From the NCBI GenBank assembly GCA_000092065.1, contig CP000590.1: a stretch of 64,000 bases of DNA; one strand, given 5' to 3'. This DNA comes from Ostreococcus lucimarinus. Taxonomy: Eukaryota. Below, piece after piece: positions 5,274 to 61,500 of the stretch; position 1 is the first letter of the stretch; each line of letters begins with the position of its first letter. The notes below the pieces were generated by a model. That model had not been told where the DNA came from. It was given only the letters and a program-made list of their open reading frames with translations, and made no database searches. The position numbers and the translations under genes were made by a program.

Positions 5274-6128
5274 ATGGAGATCGTCGCCAACGCCCTGGTG
5301 TACGTCGGGGGGTATGTGTTCTTGGTGTTCATGGCGGTGTGCCTCGCCACCGGTGCGTGCGACGCGCGAACGCGCCGACGACGCGACGCGATGATCCGAT
5401 TCGTTGGGTGACGATGGCGCGGCGACGGGGGGCGCGGTGGCGCGCGCGCGAGGCGTGGATCGCGGCGATGAGACGCGAGGCGCGGTGAGGCGCGCGCGAG
5501 CGCGAGGACTGACGGACGACGCGGCGAACGCGCGACGCGCGCAGGGTTGTACTACCTCGCGGAGATGGTCGAAGAGTACACGCGGTTGACGAAGAAGGTG
5601 CTCGATTGGTCGATCAAGGCGTCGTACGGGTTTCACGCGCTGCTGTTCATCGTCGATCGCATGCCGTTCTTCGCGTGCGCGGTGAGTTGTTTGGCGCAGT
5701 TCGCGTACTCGCGGATGTTGAAGCGGTTTCCGTTCATAGACTTTACGAGCGGAGAGTTTTTGGGTTCGCTCGCGGCGATGGGCGCGACGCACTGGGTGTG
5801 GGTGCGACACTTTCACAGCACTTATCACAGCACCGAGTACGTGCTCGGCTTTTTCTTCATGATCGTCTGGTTCGTGCCGTTTGGGTTCTTCATTAGCATC
5901 GCCGCGAACGAGAGCGTTTTGCCGGGCGGAGCCACAGTGCCGGGGGCGCCGAGTAGCGGCAACCTCGGTGGATACGACCCCAATAGAGGTGGCGGCAAAA
6001 AGACGAGGAACGCGTTGTTGATGCTGTTAGATACGCTCAAGTTGTACTGGACGCGACTCAGCGAACGCTTCATGCCCAAAGGCGGCATCCCGGGAACGTA
6101 TCGCGATACCCATCAGAAGGGATGGTAA
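5274..6128 (+). CDS. TEX261-family membrane protein; two exons (5274..5352 and 5545..6128)
   Basis: Exon 1 (ATG at 5274) encodes MEIVANALVYVGGYVFLVFMAVCLAT + G (phase 1). Donor G|GTGCGTGCG is at 5353, the branch box GGACTGACGG is near 5508, and the acceptor CGCGCAG|GG is at 5544. Exon 2 continues LYYLAEMVEEYTRLTKKVLDWSIKASYGFHALLFIVDRMPFF... The junction ATGLYYLAEMVEEYT matches human TEX261 AAGLYYLAELIEEYT. The ORF track shows only exon 2, starting from a TTG. Confidence 0.6.
5353..5544 (+). other. Spliceosomal intron (192 bp) of the TEX261-like gene
   Basis: GTGCGTG donor, CTGAC branch about 30 nt upstream of the AG, and a CGCGCAG acceptor. It restores a TEX261-conserved junction. Confidence 0.6.
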
Positions 6129-6256: not shown

Positions 6257-7159
6257 CTACGCCGTCACTTGCGAACTCAGCTTGGCGTTGAGCGAACGCA
6301 ACACGCTCAAAGAGCTCCCTTGAATGAAGTGCTGCTTCACCGCGTTATTCGCCATCACCACCGGATCGATACTCGTCGAGCGCTCAGGCATGAAACCGCC
6401 GGTACGCTGCATGGCTTCGGCTTGCGCCAACAACGGTTGCAACTGCTTCGCCGTGTGCACGATTGCCCCCGCCGCGTTCAGTCCCTCCTTCACTCGCGCG
6501 TTTTCCTTACCAACCGCCGCCGTGATGGCTTGAATTCTACCAACAACTTCAACGTGCGATTCTAACTCCTTGTCCAACGCCTTACACTCCTTTTCACTCG
6601 TCGTCTTCAACGCCCTCGCTCGAGAGATTCGCGCTCGCAGCGAGCGCAACTCCCCGTCCAACGCGCTTTCCTCCTCTTCACTCACGCTCGGCAGCGCGTC
6701 AATCTCTTCCACGCGCGACTCATACTCAATCACTTCGCTCGGAATCGCGAAGCACGCCGCTTTGGCGTGCGAACAGAACCGATTAAAGTTGTCGCCAATC
6801 TTCAACTGCAGCTTCGCGTACAGCGCGTCCAAACCGTGCTTAAACGCCGCCTTCGTGCGCTCATCCGGGTCCGTCTCCTCGTTCAAGCACGACTCGAGCG
6901 CGTCGAACCCTTCGGCGGCGTAATGTTCCACCTATTCGCGTCGTCACGTCGCGTCGTCAGTCCTCATTCGCGCGTCGCGTCGCGCATTTCGCGTCGCGAG
7001 GGGAACCACGACGAATTTGAAATTTTCAAACCGTCGCGCGCGTCGCGTCGCGCGTTCGAGCGCTCGCGGGCGACGCACCGCGTTCGTGATGTCATCGCAC
7101 ACGTCTTTCGAGCGTTCGCGCTGTTCGCGCGCGCGCGCGCACGGAATCGGGTCGGGCAT
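6257..7159 (-). CDS. Coiled-coil protein, possibly Mis12/Mtw1-family kinetochore protein; two exons (7159..7079 and 6931..6257)
   Basis: The track ORF 6257..6931 starts at a GTG immediately after a TAG. Upstream on the minus strand is a GGACTGACGACG branch box (about 6955-6963). A GTGCGTC donor at 7078 follows an in-frame exon with ATG at 7159 (MPDPIPCARAREQRERSKDVCDDITNA, 27 codons, phase 0). The spliced product continues VEHYAAEGFDALESCL...LDALYAKLQLKIGDNFNRFCSHAKAACFAIPSEV, which resembles the Mis12 N-terminal box (..F.KFE.Y..RNIF.IP..). Coiled coil follows. Confidence 0.4.
6932..7078 (-). other. Spliceosomal intron (147 bp)
   Basis: Minus-strand donor GTGCGTC (7078..7072), branch GGACTGACG, acceptor AATAG| at 6932. 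The 5' exon supplies the only ATG. Confidence 0.45.
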
Positions 7160-17159: not shown

Positions 17160-18872
17160 TCATCGGCGCCCGAATGGGCTGACGCTGAGTCCCATGACTT
17201 TCGCGCGGCGGCGAAGCTCTTCGTCGGAGGTTGGTTTGTACGCCCCGGGAGGAAGTTTCGGCGCGGGTCCGTGCGTGAGGCGGATGGCGACGCGCGCGCG
17301 AAGTCGTGGCGTCGGTAACATGCCTCGATGTCGCCCCGGCGAGTCAAACTCGTCGTCTGAATCTTTGTCCTCTTCTTCTTTTTCATCTTCCTCTCGTTTT
17401 TCATCTTCCTCGTTCGCGTGTTTCGCCTCGGAGAACTCCATCCAGTTTTCTACGGCTCGTTTCATCGGCGTCAAATCGTCGACCGTGGAGTAAACAAAGG
17501 GCGCCGGCGAGCACTTTTGACTTTCGCTCACGTATCTCGTCATCGCCGTCCGCGCGACGGAGACGCGGCGCTCCGCCGCGCGCGCGCGCTCTTCCAACGC
17601 TTCAACTTGCTCCTTGTCCAAGACGTCACCAATCGATCGCATTTCGAGCTTGTTCTCTAACATCGTCACCTTCGCTTGCAACTCGGTGTTTCTGGTCGTG
17701 GAATCGGCGAGCGCGGCGCTCAGACGCTGCGCCGTCGCAACACTACCGCACTTGCACGGCATTTCGCCTGATATTAAAGCCTCCGGCAAGCTCAAGCGTT
17801 GCGCGAGCGGGGCGTTTTCGGACTCACTCGCTCGCGCCTGCGCGGCAGCCAACGCAGACATGATGGACTCTTTTTCTTCCGCGGCGTGCTCGGCGTTGCG
17901 CGCCATTTGCTCCTTGAGTTTTTTCACTTCGGATTCAATCATCAAAAACTCCTCGCGCAACGCGTGAGCCGTGGCCTCTGCACCATTCGCGCGCTCGTCC
18001 GCGGTGTGGCTGCACCGCTCGAAAAATGCCGCGCGATCTTTAATCTGAGCGAGTTCGCGTTCGCGTCGTCGTTCCGACGCTTCCTTTGTCTTTGCGAGCT
18101 CGTCCTGAAGCGCGTCGAATTCTTCGGCGTGCGCTCGCGTCTCGCGTTCCATTTGCGTCTTGGCGATGTCAAGTTCGCGACGTAACGCCAGTATTTCCGC
18201 ATCCTTCGCCGTGATCTCTCGTTTGTGCACCGCAGATTCCTCGACTTCGGTCTCCGTCTGCACAACCGCGTTGACGAGCTTCGGCTTCTCCGCCCGCGTC
18301 TCGCGCAATCGCTTCGCCTCGGCTTTCGCCGCGACGAGCTCTACGTCACGCTTGTGCGCGTCGAGCCTCAACTTCGCGTTCTCCTTCTCCGTCTCCTCCA
18401 CTCGCGTCGCCCATTTCTCTTCGCTCGCTTCCTCCAACGACTTCGCCCACGCGTTCCTCGCCGTCGCCTCCGCGTGCGCCAACGCGAGCTCGGAATCCTT
18501 GACGTTTTCCAGCACCACCCGCAGCGACCTCGCCTCGAGCGATTCCTCGTAAATCTCCTCCAACGCCCTCCGCTGCGTCGCACTCAGCACCGCGTTCGCC
18601 CCGATTCGCCCCAACACCTCCTCGAACGCCTCCACCGCTTCGAACCCATCCTCGCGTTCCGTCGCCGCGCGCCCGAGCGTCTCCTCGCTCGCGCTCCTCG
18701 CGCGCGCCAGTCTCGACTTCCCGCGCCTCCGCGCCTCTCCCGGCGTCCGCGCGCCCCCTCCGTTCGCCGCGAACCTCTCCGGAGAATTTTTATCCAGCAC
18801 CGCCAGCGGCGAGCGCAGTTCCGTCGTCCCCAGCTTCGCGAGCGTCGGTCGTCGTCCCGCCGTCGTCGCCAT
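17160..18872 (-). CDS. Coiled-coil protein with an acidic EDEKREEDEKEEEDKD C-terminal region
   Basis: Long heptad-rich ORF. The first plausible ATG is near 18872 (MATTAGRRPTLAKLGTTELRSPLAVL...). Upstream codons in the track ORF are R/A/S low-complexity. Function not recognised. Confidence 0.4.
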   Translation of the reverse strand: MATTAGRRPTLAKLGTTELRSPLAVLDKNSPERFAANGGGARTPGEARRRGKSRLARARSASEETLGRAATEREDGFEAVEAFEEVLGRIGANAVLSATQRRALEEIYEESLEARSLRVVLENVKDSELALAHAEATARNAWAKSLEEASEEKWATRVEETEKENAKLRLDAHKRDVELVAAKAEAKRLRETRAEKPKLVNAVVQTETEVEESAVHKREITAKDAEILALRRELDIAKTQMERETRAHAEEFDALQDELAKTKEASERRRERELAQIKDRAAFFERCSHTADERANGAEATAHALREEFLMIESEVKKLKEQMARNAEHAAEEKESIMSALAAAQARASESENAPLAQRLSLPEALISGEMPCKCGSVATAQRLSAALADSTTRNTELQAKVTMLENKLEMRSIGDVLDKEQVEALEERARAAERRVSVARTAMTRYVSESQKCSPAPFVYSTVDDLTPMKRAVENWMEFSEAKHANEEDEKREEDEKEEEDKDSDDEFDSPGRHRGMLPTPRLRARVAIRLTHGPAPKLPPGAYKPTSDEELRRRAKVMGLSVSPFGRR

Positions 18873-19279
18873 CGTCGGCGACGCGATCGCGACCGCGACC
18901 GTCCCTCGCGCGCGCTCGCGTCCCGCGCCGTCGCGGTTCAGGTGCGCGTGCGCTTCCATCGCGCGTCGAATCGCCGCGCGTCGGTCGAGCATCGCGCGCG
19001 CGTCGTCGGCACGCGCGCGCGCGACGGTCGCGACGAACTGTGACGATTGACGTTCCCCTCCGTCGTTCCCCCGATCGCCGGGACGAGGGAACGACGGGGG
19101 AGCGCGCGACGCGCGCGACGCGAAAAAAAATCGAACCGACGGCGCGGTCGCGATCGAGCGACGCCGCGGTCGCGACGCGCGCGCGGGTCGCGCGGCGTCG
19201 CGGAGACGCGACGCGCGACGGGGCGACGTCACTCGGTGACGCCGTCGAACGACGACCGTCGCGAACGCGAGGCGACGCG

Positions 19280-20154: not shown

Positions 20155-22482
20155 TCATCGCTGCTGCACCGAGCATCGCGTCACCTCCGCGCGGAGGCAT
20201 TTGTGAAGCTTCGTCGCGAGCGCTTCGTCGCCACCGCACATATTTTTCAATACTAGCGGCGACATGCGGACGAACTGGCTTCCCGTGAGCGTGGTCGGTA
20301 CCTTGACAGACTGAAACGCCCCTCTCGCCGCGCTCGATAGCCACTGCGTCACTTCTTCGCGGCTCCATTTCACGGGGGCGATAAGACGCTCCGCCGCGAC
20401 CTCGGTGACTTGACCAGTCTTTGCGTCCACGCGAAGCGTCGCGGCGACGTCCTCTTTTTCTTCGGCGTATCCCTCGCTGTCTTCGTTGCCCCCGATGGCG
20501 TTGATCGTTTTCAAAGTCGCGAGAGAGTGCTCGGTGTCGATAGACGCCGGTGACATGGTGCCGATGACGGCGACGCCAGCGTCTTCGCGCACGAAGCACT
20601 CCGCCAGGACGCGAGTGAGCGGGCTGTTCCGGTACGGCACGTGCACGTTTGAGTTTCTAGCGCCCGAAAATTTCAGTCGTCGGAAGCGCACGCACTCTTT
20701 CAGCGCGTACAAGCTCGCATTAATTTCCGCCGTTTCCTTTCGCTGCTTCTCGTTGTGATGCGTATTGTCCTCTTTGCGTTCGCTTCCTGCACAATCCACC
20801 AACGTCAGACGACCCATCGATCCATCGGACAAAGTAACGGTGAGACGCATGACTGCGTGCGATCGAGACGACGACGCGTTACACTGCGTCGCACTCGTTT
20901 GTCGACGAGATTTGCCCTCGTCGATGACCTTTTTCAAGTCGCTCGCGCTCGTCACGACGGGTTCCTTCGCGCCCATGAGTTCGACTTCCATCTGCCCCGT
21001 GAGCGCGTCGCCCTGCTCTTCGAACAATTCTTTCAGTCGAATCTCCACTCGACCAGGTTGCAGCAAGTCCACGCACGCCTTACCGGCGATTTCGAAATAC
21101 GACACCTTGATGGATTTCGCCCCCGCCGCGGCGCCGTCGCCGACGAATAGCGCCTCGATGGCGTGTTTCTCAATGTTCTCCATCGTGTGCGTCTTCCCGC
21201 TTCCCGTTTGGCCGTACATGAATAAAGCGCCGACGCCACCTTTAAGCGTACCCGCCACGAGAGGCGCCGCGCTGCGATCGTACACATCGTGCTCTTGCGC
21301 GTCTTCGTCAAAGACGCCGCCCGAAAGCGTGTACGCGCAGTGCTTGACAAACATCCTCTTCAAATCGGCGTGCATCTGGCAGTTGTGCACGACAGCGGTT
21401 GATCCACTCTTCACGCTCACGACGTCGTACTCGCCGCGCTTCTTCTCGGGATCGAAAAGTGGACGCTTTCGCGCGTACACGTTAATCGCTCCGGGCGCGC
21501 TCGTCTCGGCGCCCGTCTCGGCGTCCGACGAATTCGTGAGATTCTTGTCACGCCAACGCTTCACCGACGCCGCGAAAGGGACTCGATTCATTCGCCTGCT
21601 CTCGCGCTTATCGAACATTTGACGATGCACCTTGTCTTCGCTCATGCCAGTCGGCCGCTTTTTCGCCGCCGGCGCGCCCGTCGGTCTCGTCGAGGATGGT
21701 TCGCTCACGCCGCCGACGGGGCGCGCCGCCGTGGACGGTTTACCAGGCGCGCTCACTCGCCCAACCGGTCGCGTCGTCGTCGACGTCACCTTGCGCTCGC
21801 GCGGTCGAGTCTTCTCCTTGGACGCGTCGCTCGTCGCTCGATTCGTCGCGAGCGGCGATCGCGACCGCTTCCCCTCTGGCTTTTTCGCGTTCGGCGGCGA
21901 CCACTCCGCCTTGTACGGTTTCGGCGCCGATTTCTTCGCCGGTTCCGGCGCCTTCGTCACCGCGCGCGGTTTTTCCTCTTCCTCCTCTTTCGCCGGCTTC
22001 TCCGCGGACGCCGTCTTCGTCTCCGCGGGCGGCTTCTCCGGCTTGGTCGGCGACTTTTGCGGCGTCGCCGTCGGCACCTTCTTCCGCTCCGGTTCCGGCG
22101 CGAGTTCGACGTCACCGCTCAACTCCAACGCCGTTCCATCGGGCACCACCTTCGAGTGCACCGTCGTCGTCTTCGCTCGCGCGTCCTCCTCCGCGCACGC
22201 TCGCTCCGCGCGCGCGTCCGCCTCCGCGCGTTCCCTCGCCAACTCCCGCTCCACCTCCTCGCGAATCTTCGCCGCCAGCGCCTCCGCCTCCCTCTTCGCC
22301 GCGCGTTCGTTCTCTTCGCGCTTCGCCCTGTCCGTCTTCGCTCGCAACCGCGCCTCTTCCCGCGCCTTCGCCTCGCGTCTCGCGACGCGCGCGTCCTCGT
22401 CGTCCGCGGTCGCGCGTCGCGCCTTGGCCCGCGCGATGGCTTCTTTTCGTTTCGCCGCCCACGCCGCCGCCGCGCTCGACGC
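20155..22482 (-). CDS. Kinesin-13-like motor protein with a C-terminal SAM domain (main exon; a 5' micro-exon is probably spliced on)
   Basis: The motor domain has FMYGQTGSGKTHTM (P-loop), SSRSHAV (switch I), LVDCAGSER (switch II) and the kinesin-13 LKECVRFRRL motif. The C-terminal VKWSREEVTQWLSSAARGAFQSVKVPTTLTGSQFVRMSPLVLKNM is SAM-like. The K/P/E/A-rich N-terminal domain is open to 22482, but the first in-frame ATG is at 21645 and the track start at 22347 is a TTG. See the finding for the proposed 5' exon. Confidence 0.65.
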   Translation of the reverse strand, partial: ASSAAAAWAAKRKEAIARAKARRATADDEDARVARREAKAREEARLRAKTDRAKREENERAAKREAEALAAKIREEVERELARERAEADARAERACAEEDARAKTTTVHSKVVPDGTALELSGDVELAPEPERKKVPTATPQKSPTKPEKPPAETKTASAEKPAKEEEEEKPRAVTKAPEPAKKSAPKPYKAEWSPPNAKKPEGKRSRSPLATNRATSDASKEKTRPRERKVTSTTTRPVGRVSAPGKPSTAARPVGGVSEPSSTRPTGAPAAKKRPTGMSEDKVHRQMFDKRESRRMNRVPFAASVKRWRDKNLTNSSDAETGAETSAPGAINVYARKRPLFDPEKKRGEYDVVSVKSGSTAVVHNCQMHADLKRMFVKHCAYTLSGGVFDEDAQEHDVYDRSAAPLVAGTLKGGVGALFMYGQTGSGKTHTMENIEKHAIEALFVGDGAAAGAKSIKVSYFEIAGKACVDLLQPGRVEIRLKELFEEQGDALTGQMEVELMGAKEPVVTSASDLKKVIDEGKSRRQTSATQCNASSSRSHAVMRLTVTLSDGSMGRLTLVDCAGSERKEDNTHHNEKQRKETAEINASLYALKECVRFRRLKFSGARNSNVHVPYRNSPLTRVLAECFVREDAGVAVIGTMSPASIDTEHSLATLKTINAIGGNEDSEGYAEEKEDVAATLRVDAKTGQVTEVAAERLIAPVKWSREEVTQWLSSAARGAFQSVKVPTTLTGSQFVRMSPLVLKNMCGGDEALATKLHKCLRAEVTRCSVQQR

Positions 22483-22758
22483 CTATCGTTGCCCGCGCGC
22501 GACGAACGCGCCTTCGTCAGTCCATCGTCGCGTTCGTTCGCGCGATCGTCGTCGTCGATTCGTTCGTTCGTTCGTGCGTCATCGCCAGGGGAACAAAGAC
22601 GCGCGACGGCGCGATGGTCGACGCGTCGGTCGACGCCCATCGCGACGCGCGACGCCCATCGCGCTCGAGCGCTCGCACGCGGTTACGTTCGCGTCGCGTC
22701 GACGCGCGCACCTTCGCCGCGTCCATCGCGGCGTCGTCGACTGCGGACGCCGGCGGAC

Positions 22759-22780
22759 GATCGATCGATCGATCGATCGA
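22759..22780. repeat. (GATC)5 microsatellite
   Basis: gatcgatcgatcgatcgatcgatt in the kinesin 5' region. Confidence 0.8.
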
Positions 22781-23019
22781 TTCGAACGTCGAAGAACCCG
22801 TAACCGTGCGCGTTCATCGCATGCGCGCGCGACCGCGTCGTCGAGTCGCGCTCGAGCGCGTAACGGTCGATAACCGCGACCGACACGTCCGGTTTCTATT
22901 TTTGAACCGTCGCGCGCCGTCGTCGCGAACGCGCGCGTCGCGGTCGACGACGACGCGGCGTCGCGACGACTCGAATCGTCGCGACGACGACGCGCGTGGG
23001 CGTCGCGACCGACGCGGAT

Positions 23020-23039
23020 GATTGATTGATTGATTGATT
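23020..23039. repeat. (GATT)5 microsatellite followed by a tgcatgaa x2 direct repeat
   Basis: gattgattgattgattgatt, then ...gatgcatgaatgcatgaatg. This overlaps the first annotated ATG of the esterase gene. Confidence 0.8.
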
Positions 23040-23049
23040 CAATGATGCG

Positions 23050-24060
23050 ATGCATGAATGCATGAATGCGCGGCCGTCGCGGCATCGCGCGACGCGCGCA
23101 AAAACGCGAATGCGCGCGGTCGCGACGCGCGCGCGCGACGCCGCGCGCGCGGTGACGCGTTCCAGCGCGTCGACGCGAGACGCGACGGGCGCGCGACCGA
23201 AGCGGATGGGATTCGACGCGCGCGCGTCGACGCGTGACGACGCGACGAGCGACGCGCGCGACGTCGAGCGAGTCGTGCGCAGGGTGAATCGAAGGATATC
23301 GAGCGCGGTGGGGGCGTTCGGGAGCGACGCGACGGGGCCGAGGGACGTCGAGGGGGAGGGGGGACGACGGGGCGCGACGCGCGAGGCGACGCGCGACGCG
23401 GGCGCGGCGCGGTTGTTGGTGTGGTTTCACGGGTACGGCGACGTCGACGGGGGGGCGTGGCGAGAGTTTTGTGAGGTCGTGGCGAGGGCGCGCGGGAGCG
23501 CGAGCGGGCGGACGGCGATCGCGACGCCGGACGCGATGCGGATGGACGCGGGGAACGGGCGGTTTCCGCGCGCGTGGTTCAAGCCGCGACTGCGCGTGCG
23601 AAGGAAAGACGAGCGCGAGTGGACGTGCGATGGGATCGAGGACGCGGTGGTGCGCGCGGTGACGATCGTGGACGATGCGGTGCGAAAGTACGGGATTCAG
23701 CGCAAAGACGTCGTCTTGGGCGGGTTCTCGCAGGGGGCGTGCTTGGCGTTGGCGTGCGCGAAGAGCGAGTTGAGCGACGTCGGCGGCGTGCTCGCGGTGC
23801 GCGGGTACCTGCCGAATCGCTCGAGAGAGTTCTCAGAACTGAAGCCCGACACTTTAATACTAGCGGGTGGGGCCGATCCTTTGGTGCCCGTGGAGTGGTC
23901 GTTGGAGGCGGGGCGGTTGACGGGGGGGATGGTGACGCTGCGCGAAAACATGGGGCACGAGTTGTGCGTCGAGGACGTCTATCGCGCGCGACGGTGGTTC
24001 CACGAACGCGCGGTCGCGAACGGTAATTGTATCGCGAATCACACCAGACTAGAGGCTTAG
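23050..24060 (+). CDS. Phospholipase/carboxylesterase-family alpha/beta hydrolase (acyl-protein thioesterase-like)
   Basis: LLVWFHGYGD...VVLGGFSQGACLALAC (GxSxG nucleophile elbow) ...LILAGGADPLVP...MGHELC (Asp and His of the triad region). The start is uncertain: ATG at 23050 sits inside a short repeat, and ATG at 23110 (MRAVATRARDAARAV...) would give a transit-like N-terminus. Confidence 0.55.
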   Translation: MHECMNARPSRHRATRAKTRMRAVATRARDAARAVTRSSASTRDATGARPKRMGFDARASTRDDATSDARDVERVVRRVNRRISSAVGAFGSDATGPRDVEGEGGRRGATREATRDAGAARLLVWFHGYGDVDGGAWREFCEVVARARGSASGRTAIATPDAMRMDAGNGRFPRAWFKPRLRVRRKDEREWTCDGIEDAVVRAVTIVDDAVRKYGIQRKDVVLGGFSQGACLALACAKSELSDVGGVLAVRGYLPNRSREFSELKPDTLILAGGADPLVPVEWSLEAGRLTGGMVTLRENMGHELCVEDVYRARRWFHERAVANGNCIANHTRLEA

Positions 24061-26298: not shown

Positions 26299-26667
26299 CG
26301 AGAACGACCGCTCGCTGAGCAACTCCGGGCGCTCGACGCCCGTGCACCGCGAGCGCAAGCTCGCGGAACCGTCGACGACGGCGCAACCGCCGACGACCGA
26401 TCCGTCGCGCACGCTGCGACTGTTCGAACAGCAGAGCGTCGATCGACGACGACGGGCGCTGGGAGAGACGGTGCGCGATGCGAGCGTCGATCGCGCGCGC
26501 GCGACGGGCGAACGGGCGCGAGCGACGCGAACGAGACGGCGATTCGAGCGATTCCGGCGCAACCGTTTCTCGAGCGAAGTCTTTCCCCTCGGGACGCGCG
26601 ACGAGACGCGAGGGACGCTGGCGTCGTGGTCGAGCGCCGAGACTGACGATGCGCGTTCACGCGCGCG

Positions 26668-27216
26668 ATGAAGGATGATTCGGCGTCGTTGGCGCGGTTG
26701 TTGCAGGAGCAAGAGCGCGCGTACTTCATGATGCGCTTCGACGGGAACGCGCGAGGCGAGACGGCGTTCGCGGACGAGGACGCGGCGTTCGAGGAGGAGG
26801 AAGAGGATGAATCGTTGGCGCTCGCGAGGCAACTGCAGGAACAGGAGGAACAAGAGTATAGGAATCGGATGTTGGCCATGGCTGGGATCGATCCCGATGC
26901 GGAGGAGGATTCTGAGGCGGAGGGGATCGATACGGACGCGATGACGTACGAGGAGTTGTGCGAGCTCGGGGACGTCGTGGGGAAGGTGACGTGTGGGCTC
27001 ACCGATGCGCAAATCGCGTCGTTGCCGCAAAGGACGATCGATGCGAGCGTGGCGGGGACGAAGTGTGCGGTGTGTTGCATGGAATTCGACGCCGGTGAGG
27101 ACGCGTGCGAGTTGCCGAGGTGCGGGCACGTGTATCACGGTGAGTGCGTCGAGCCGTGGTTGAAGGAGAACAAGTCGTGTCCGACGTGCAAGACGGAGGT
27201 GTTCGAAGAGACTTAG
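26668..27216 (+). CDS. RING-H2 E3 ubiquitin ligase with two N-terminal UIM-like motifs
   Basis: ATG at 26668 (the overlapping ATGA is shared with the stop of the upstream ORF). SLARLLQEQERAY and SLALARQLQEQEEQEY are UIM-like. The C-terminal RING-H2 is CAVCCMEFDAGEDACELPRCGHVYHGECVEPWLKENKSCPTC. Confidence 0.6.
   Translation: MKDDSASLARLLQEQERAYFMMRFDGNARGETAFADEDAAFEEEEEDESLALARQLQEQEEQEYRNRMLAMAGIDPDAEEDSEAEGIDTDAMTYEELCELGDVVGKVTCGLTDAQIASLPQRTIDASVAGTKCAVCCMEFDAGEDACELPRCGHVYHGECVEPWLKENKSCPTCKTEVFEET

Positions 27217-49965: not shown

Positions 49966-50774
<809 letters not shown>

Positions 50775-60951: not shown

Positions 60952-61500
<549 letters not shown>

Follow-up and report, generated by a model that had tools for sequence, protein, structure and literature searches.

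The kinesin-13 locus and its open frame

We examined the 5' end of a kinesin-13 gene in a 64-kb stretch of the genome of Ostreococcus lucimarinus strain CCE9901 (hereafter the window), where the gene lies on the minus strand and most of its coding sequence falls in one long frame, running from a TAG at 22485..22483 to a TGA at 20157..20155 and comprising 775 sense codons. When ten long ATG-led open reading frames of the window were looked up by exact sequence, several proved identical to annotated proteins of this strain (XP_001419999.1, XP_001419990.1 and XP_001420177.1). A preliminary description of this DNA had noted that the frame is open from position 21645 up to this TAG with no ATG within, and its coordinates were all borne out: 21645 is the earliest in-frame ATG, and the 279 codons upstream of it (21646..22482, minus strand) form an N-terminal extension of the motor protein. 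The reading that we prefer, with a probability of about 0.9, is that the gene has a two-exon 5' end, consisting of a short first coding exon at 22726..22712, an intron at 22711..22483 and a second exon at 22482..20155.

The open frame alone is not beyond chance expectation, because the window is about 64% G+C and three open reading frames (ORFs), of 394, 413 and 441 aa, overlap the kinesin frame on the opposite strand. These plus-strand ORFs (21619..22803, 21632..22873 and 21696..23021) were rejected as antisense artefacts of a G+C-rich coding region, and an open frame accompanied by codon bias is likewise insufficient as stand-alone evidence in this genome, where conservation is required. As judged from comparison with relatives, what lifts the proposed structure beyond chance is that the frame, the splice signals and the first exon are all conserved.

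Searched against proteins, the frame matched ten clusters along its entire length, all of them ORF calls from metagenomes that read straight through, and these orthologues are 61-73% identical to the translation of exon 2 (20155..22482, minus strand; 775 codons plus TGA) over its full length. We compared the DNA of eight of the ten cluster loci, all of which are syntenic, and eleven loci entered the full comparison of signals; in all long loci the upstream neighbour of the kinesin gene is Abhydrolase_2, in divergent orientation, and the downstream neighbour is CIA30, in convergent orientation. In 10/10 clusters similarity starts exactly at an Ala-Ser pair (ASEAA.DWA.KR.EA...); either Q (CAG) or a TAG stop precedes this pair, and further upstream the clusters show no relation to one another. 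Aligning the N-terminus with orthologues, a check that the preliminary description had called for, thus gives a coding extension conserved from Ala-Ser onwards.

Two parts make up the extension: a helical region that is conserved (about aa 6-115) and, after it, a linker rich in K/P/E/A, in which VVPDGT, ELAPEPE and EWSPP.AK stand out as conserved islands; AKREAEALAAKIR is an additional strongly conserved block. In eight lineages the 279 codons of the extension have kept an open reading frame despite many indels, the ratio of non-synonymous to synonymous substitution rates (dN/dS) is about 0.5, compared with about 0.05 for the motor, and its G+C content is 0.84 at third codon positions (GC3) against 0.62 at second positions (GC2). 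AlphaFold2 (AF2) models the 110 residues at the start of exon 2 as a single helix, which spans residues 3-109 with a predicted local distance difference test score (pLDDT) of 93 and would suit a coiled-coil dimerisation region.

A probable five-codon first exon and phase-0 intron

Upstream of the TAG, an ORF at 22726..22517 starts with the codons ATG GAC GCG GCG AAG (MDAAK; 22712..22726, minus strand, 15 nt), and GTGCGCG stands immediately after them, the two together occupying 22726..22705. That these five codons are a first exon with a phase-0 donor at 22711 had been put forward in the preliminary description, and the proposal is supported by relatives, as both position and phase are kept in every related locus examined. 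The ATG at 22726 has a good initiation context (G at -3 and G at +4), an in-frame stop lies 29 codons upstream of it (22816..22814), and there is no other start codon between the two. At 15 nt, the exon is unusually short for a first coding exon of this intron class.

The intron that this exon implies is spliceosomal, 229 nt long and in phase 0 (22483..22711, minus strand), and the signals read from it are those established for the species. In a published survey, introns of O. lucimarinus outside chromosome 2 that are confirmed by expressed sequence tags (ESTs) have the unusual 5' splice site GTGCGTG (PMC2483917, Irimia and Roy 2008), and the same survey gives the branch motif ACTGAC for 87% of non-chromosome-2 introns and the extended box GACTGACG for 66.5% (PMC2483917). 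The 5' splice site GTGCGCG (22705..22711, minus strand) matches this donor consensus at 6/7 bases; the branch box GGACTGACG (22515..22523, minus strand) is an exact match to the published extended box, and its presumed branch A, at 22517, lies 32 nt before the TAG, as had been described beforehand; and no other YAG comes between this box and the TAG itself (22483..22485, minus strand), which the exon-2 frame reads as a stop codon. Compared with the O. lucimarinus introns outside chromosome 2, this intron shares the donor GTGCG.G, the box GACTGACG and the short branch-to-AG distance, and we see no essential difference. Its removal yields, by computation, a single open frame of 780 aa, with phase 0 on both sides, whereas a retained intron would end translation after 69 codons.

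The exact 9-mer GGACTGACG occurs in three copies in the window, each of them followed, 27-39 nt on, by a YAG at which a coding exon starts. The parallel previously drawn with a Mis12-like gene is sound, in that the intron of that gene ends AATAG|GTG at 6932 and has an identical box.

Focusing on variation within the species, we compared eight O. lucimarinus-type haplotypes (the window and seven others) recovered from metagenomes. Over exon 1, the donor, the intronic motif TTTGTTCCCC (discussed below), the branch box, the acceptor and the first 60 nt of exon 2, 0/104 columns are variable (0/44 when exon 1 plus signals only are counted), so that MDAAK is unvarying across all eight; the remaining intron has substitutions in 36/218 columns and gaps in 22. 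Intron length differs between haplotypes from 227 to 242 nt, with all residues modulo three represented. An (AACG)n microsatellite inside the intron (22531..22579, minus strand) differs in copy number between haplotypes, and runs of N at this repeat in two metagenome scaffolds suggest that it breaks assemblies.

The same structure is found between species. At a distance of 215-272 nt before the acceptor, every locus compared has an ATG-led open mini-exon and a phase-0 GTNCG donor, which takes the form GT[G/A/C]CG in all relatives; the acceptor reads YAG|GC(G/A) in each compared locus, and relatives have ACTGAC 28-43 nt before the acceptor, the exceptions being O. tauri (ACTGAG) and locus L006 (GATGAC). 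In a MAFFT alignment the conserved islands are ATG..AAG|GT.CG, GTTCCCC and AG|GC, and the remainder cannot be aligned. The mini-exons of the Ostreococcus loci are 15 or 24 nt long and end A-x-K/E: MDAAK|GTGCGCG is shared by the window, L010 and L013, and the other loci read MDARK|GTGCGCG (L011 and L012), MNAKK|GTACGCG (L001), MNAKK|GTGCGCG (L005), MRATK|GTCCGTG (L003), MDARK|GTGCGTC (L006), MQAKK|GTGCGCG (L008), MTDAQARK|GTGCGAG (L007) and MGASE|GTGCGGG (O. tauri). Intron lengths in relatives (215-272 nt) are not multiples of three, whereas coding lengths of exon 1 always are, including the 72 nt of locus L020 and the 183 nt of Bathycoccus.

Two of these relatives carry annotations with an identical structure. 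The O. tauri orthologue (XP_022839824.1 / CEF99410.1, 787 aa, chromosome 10) is annotated MGASE|ASEAARAW, with ATGGGCGCGAGCGAG|GTGCGGG at the donor and CAG|GCGTCG at the acceptor; since its gene spans 2,579 nt and its coding sequence 2,364 nt, it has one intron of 215 nt, in the homologous place. It shares with the window gene 70% identity, the neighbouring genes, a 15-nt first coding exon, a phase-0 acceptor before Ala-Ser, the GTTCCCCC motif in the intron and a C-terminal SAM domain, and differs in reading MGASE rather than MDAAK and in its acceptor (CAG, not TAG), box (ACTGAG) and donor (GTGCGGG). The O. tauri annotation was guided by RNA-seq and manually curated, with 89% of introns validated by RNA-seq (PMC4378021).

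The Bathycoccus prasinos protein (locus L019, OZ117146.1 1501..1900; protein P0018, 917 aa), annotated ...ISAAEK|ASLAAKEY, has the same codon boundary and, like the window protein, carries this C-terminal domain after a kinesin-13-type motor, but its exon 1 comprises 61 residues, its intron is 153 nt long and reads GTATGC...CACAG without an ACTGAC box, and the G+C content of its genome is lower. At the junction, high-G+C relatives, which are probably Micromonas, read ...Q|ASNAAADWAQKRKQ, and one such Micromonas-like locus (L020, 1440..1720) has a first exon of 24 codons ending AKARK|GTGCGTC. Because the intron position is common to Bathycoccus and the Micromonas-like relatives, the intron is older than Ostreococcus, the one change being in how long exon 1 is.

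Taken together, these features suggest the following course of expression. Transcription would start upstream of 22726, and the conserved element TCCGCAGTC (22739..22747, minus strand), which lies 12 nt before the ATG, is possibly an initiator or transcription-start element, to judge from its position and from its being identical in L001, L005, L007, L010 and L013 and present in variant form in L003 and L012. Translation would begin at ATG 22726, and the transcript would be spliced after the five codons of MDAAK by the U2-type spliceosome, using the donor GTGCGCG at 22711, the box GACTGACG with a branch A at about 22517, and the first downstream YAG (TAG 22485..22483). Exon 2 would thereby be joined in phase 0, giving the 780-aa protein.

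Further upstream, in the region that the kinesin gene shares with the divergently oriented esterase gene, Tandem Repeats Finder reports a (CGAT)6.0 microsatellite at 22758..22781, and it reports a (TGAT)5.2 microsatellite at 23019..23039; these are the two repeats of the preliminary description, the intronic (AACG)n being a third. To look for an RNA gene in the intron or the promoter, 22300..23200 was scanned against Rfam at E<=1; the matches all lay far below threshold and were of a kind that G+C-rich DNA typically gives, and this possibility was rejected.

Alternative starts and the search for spliced products

Of the other ways to account for the 5' end, the one that survives best is that translation begins at ATG 21645 and yields 496 aa (MSEDKVHRQMFDK...), the open frame upstream being 5' untranslated region kept open by G+C richness; the preliminary description had itself named this as the case that would speak against its proposal. 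It draws on 21645 being the first ATG in frame, on long chance ORFs being common here (394-441 aa on the opposite strand) and on the fact that prokaryote-style metagenome callers give exactly this 496-aa product. The orthologue codon alignment contradicts it, however: the Met is not conserved, its place being taken by R, G, R, L, A or a gap; the upstream codons keep their frame through the indels of eight lineages and carry the conserved blocks and the codon-position bias described above; and the annotations of O. tauri and Bathycoccus take in the upstream region. We consider a start at 21645 very improbable.

A real intron with a different donor is less probable still. GTGCGAG at 22672..22678 (minus strand) is in phase 0, as had been pointed out when it was offered as the alternative to 22711, would give a first exon of 16 residues (MDAAKVRASTRRERNR) and fits the donor consensus as well as does 22711, so that it could in principle serve as the donor or as a minor alternative one. 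Against this, it occurs in the window haplotype only, 7/7 other haplotypes reading GGTCGAG, and has no counterpart in other species, whereas the 22711 donor is universal; being private to one of eight haplotypes, 22678 is not the conserved donor. It is a newly created, consensus-like donor within the intron which, on its sequence, could cause some alternative splicing in CCE9901 only.

Just as improbable is the absence of a coding first exon, with a non-AUG start in exon 2 (e.g. TTG 22347, which ORF callers pick to give 730 aa) or an exon further upstream and the mini-ORF acting as an upstream ORF: the start is not fixed by transcripts, but orthologues are already conserved from the acceptor onwards, 45 codons before the TTG, the mini-ORF keeps phase with the donor in every case and changes length in multiples of three (15, 24, 72 and 183 nt), and an in-frame stop lies 29 codons upstream of ATG 22726.

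Returning to the two-exon structure with its donor at 22711, several observations weigh against it. The five residues of exon 1 are conserved weakly, only A3 and K/E5 being kept, and such conservation as they have may reflect Kozak and splice-site constraints rather than peptide function. The 89% of RNA-seq-validated introns in O. tauri is a figure for the annotation as a whole and need not include the kinesin intron. Searches for a spliced transcript or product were also negative: an exact look-up of the predicted 780-aa product among about 15 billion proteins gave no match, a 26-mer across the junction had 0 matches in JGI metagenome contigs, a 26-mer at the start of exon 2 matched five contigs that are all unspliced genomic DNA, and the 155 N-terminal aa of the spliced product, searched against proteins, matched five clusters, none of them spliced and with no M-x-A-x-K-AS... 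fragments.

The absence of spliced forms says little, because these collections hold mostly assemblies of genomic DNA. The 730-aa (TTG 22347) and 496-aa (ATG 21645) forms that they do contain are prokaryote-style calls (contigs L015-L029); as callers of this kind consistently split or truncate the gene, public collections hold many wrong versions of the protein and not the correct one. The same metagenome contigs sometimes carry a spurious antisense call of 384 aa. Look-ups of a neighbouring gene together with long flanks, aimed at the reference model of CCE9901, gave only metagenome contigs bearing prokaryote-style calls. Since no spliced transcript was found, that O. lucimarinus uses junction 22712|22482 is inferred from the signals, from conservation and from how the orthologues are annotated.

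Protein domains, the intronic motif and the wider setting

The predicted protein would open with a short peptide at its N-terminus, after which come a long and conserved helix that is probably a coiled coil, a disordered linker rich in K/P/E/A, and a basic neck; the motor, of kinesin-13 type, would follow, and a SAM domain would form the C-terminus. The motor (20509..21471, minus strand; Pfam Kinesin, E 9e-60) occupies residues 338-658 of the open frame and is thus internal, at aa 343-663 of 780. Its P-loop lies at 21213..21190 and its KEC motif at 20703..20683 (both minus strand), where ALKECVRF aligns with ALKECIRA of KIF2C. All 11/11 matches below 1e-30 in the PDB are kinesin-13 proteins (KIF2C, KIF2A, KLP10A and PfKinI), the best of these being MCAK/KIF2C, KIF2A and KLP10A at E 1e-42 to 1e-45.

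With these canonical members of the family the protein shares the KEC motif, the internal motor and a basic neck before it, but it is without an N-terminal globular domain and has a C-terminal SAM domain, and in loop 2 it has H-A-D (21372..21364, minus strand) where MCAK has K-V-D. Only the Asp of the KVD finger is therefore kept, and H-A-D is found in all Ostreococcus orthologues, which raises the question whether the protein depolymerises microtubules at all.

The SAM (SAM/Pointed-like) domain follows directly after the motor (20161..20373, minus strand), and the Pfam check suggested for this region is below threshold on the window protein: the full protein scores 17 bits against a cut-off of 22.6, and the isolated domain scores 21.6 bits for SAM_3 (cut-off 22.6) and 20.0 for SAM_PNT (cut-off 24), below the gathering threshold in both cases. 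Other tests support the assignment. Some members of the domain family exceed the Pfam threshold (P0279 at 30.4 bits and P0284 at 38.7 bits), 15/26 homologues match SAM_PNT at E<=0.01, and a profile of the 26 homologues, searched against the PDB, matches SAM domains almost solely (Aveugle at 1.3e-4 over positions 22-99, and also ETV6, the Ets PNT domain, SARM1 and liprin). An AF2 model has pLDDT >90 over residues 40-105, and in a Foldseek search of the PDB with it the top 50 matches are all SAM domains, with probabilities up to 0.99 and target-normalised TM scores of 0.6-0.69, at E-values that are weak (>=0.17). The C-terminal SAM domain is real.

The preliminary description had recognised this domain and had called its C-terminal position unusual, and the latter part does not hold. 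A C-terminal SAM domain is also present in Bathycoccus, other Mamiellophyceae and Tetraselmis; a search of 1.84 billion representatives with the SAM profile found 401 clusters (at 50% identity) at E<=0.001, and 9/9 of the long clusters scanned have a kinesin motor immediately before the domain (among proteins P0276-P0337), so that the motor-then-SAM module is widespread. Two motor-SAM members have further domains after it, Sel1/RING/MYND in one case and a second SAM_1 in the other.

KIF24 carries its SAM domain N-terminally and its coiled coils C-terminally. Trypanosoma brucei KIN13-5 likewise has an N-terminal SAM domain and C-terminal coiled coils, both of which contribute to multimerisation (PMC10863849), and this protein bundles microtubules rather than depolymerising them. 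The window protein shares with both a kinesin-13-type internal motor, a SAM domain and a coiled coil, but the order is reversed, the helix being N-terminal here and the SAM domain standing after the motor.

The sole unexplained item of this analysis is the intronic motif TTTGTTCCCC (22588..22597, minus strand), a conserved element with the donor on one side of it and the branch box on the other. It is found 92-132 nt before the acceptor in 9/10 related Ostreococcus loci and inverted (GGGGGAAC) in L006; the same intron contains it in L001, L003, L005, L007, L008, L009, L010-L013 and L020, and in the Bathycoccus locus L019 as TTTTCCCCC. Within the window, [G/T]TTCCCC(Y) is present in 4/6 clear introns against roughly 0.1-0.2 expected, a small sample, with copies in other introns at 7000..7009 (minus strand), 26579..26588 (plus strand) and about 50267..50273 (plus strand), and 3/9 copies of GTTCCCC in the window fall in about 1 kb of intron.

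We tentatively suggest, at clearly less than even odds, that [G/T]TTCCCC(Y) may be a functional third intron signal of Mamiellales, either an upstream polypyrimidine tract or splicing enhancer acting in the RNA or, equally, a DNA element of promoter-proximal introns. The motif was not found in the text searched of two papers on Ostreococcus introns (PMC2483917 and PMC2367439), and literature on a TTCCCC motif together with Ostreococcus gave nothing relevant at the level of titles and abstracts. Two tandem copies of GTTCCCC (GACGTTCCCCTCCGTCGTTCCCC) also stand at 19049..19071 (plus strand), between a divergent gene at 17160..19232 (minus strand) and CIA30, so that the motif occurs outside recognised introns as well, in a probable promoter or 5' region.

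At least five further introns of the window have a putative GTGCG donor, a GACTGACG box and a YAG 27-65 nt on. They lie at about 5353..5544 (plus strand), 7078..6932 (minus strand, in the Mis12-like gene), 26471..26706 (plus strand), about 50204..50320 (plus strand) and 61385..61250 (minus strand), and are mostly near the 5' ends of their genes.

The kinesin-13 intron thus belongs, as an ordinary member, to the known class of Ostreococcus introns, and the annotation of O. tauri already shows this structure. Genomes with few introns retain them near the 5' end, and given this and the O. tauri annotation the two-exon structure is expected. Its value lies in part in the correction of annotation, as automated calls on an abundant marine alga cut this kinesin to 730 or 496 residues; both truncated forms lose the true start, and the 496-residue form also loses the conserved N-terminal helix. 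It further provides a worked example of how a strict donor and branch-box consensus, combined with comparison across species, recovers micro-exons that are hidden from ORF finders. The motor-then-SAM module, found in hundreds of clusters, and the conserved intronic TTCCCC motif may be of interest to specialists.

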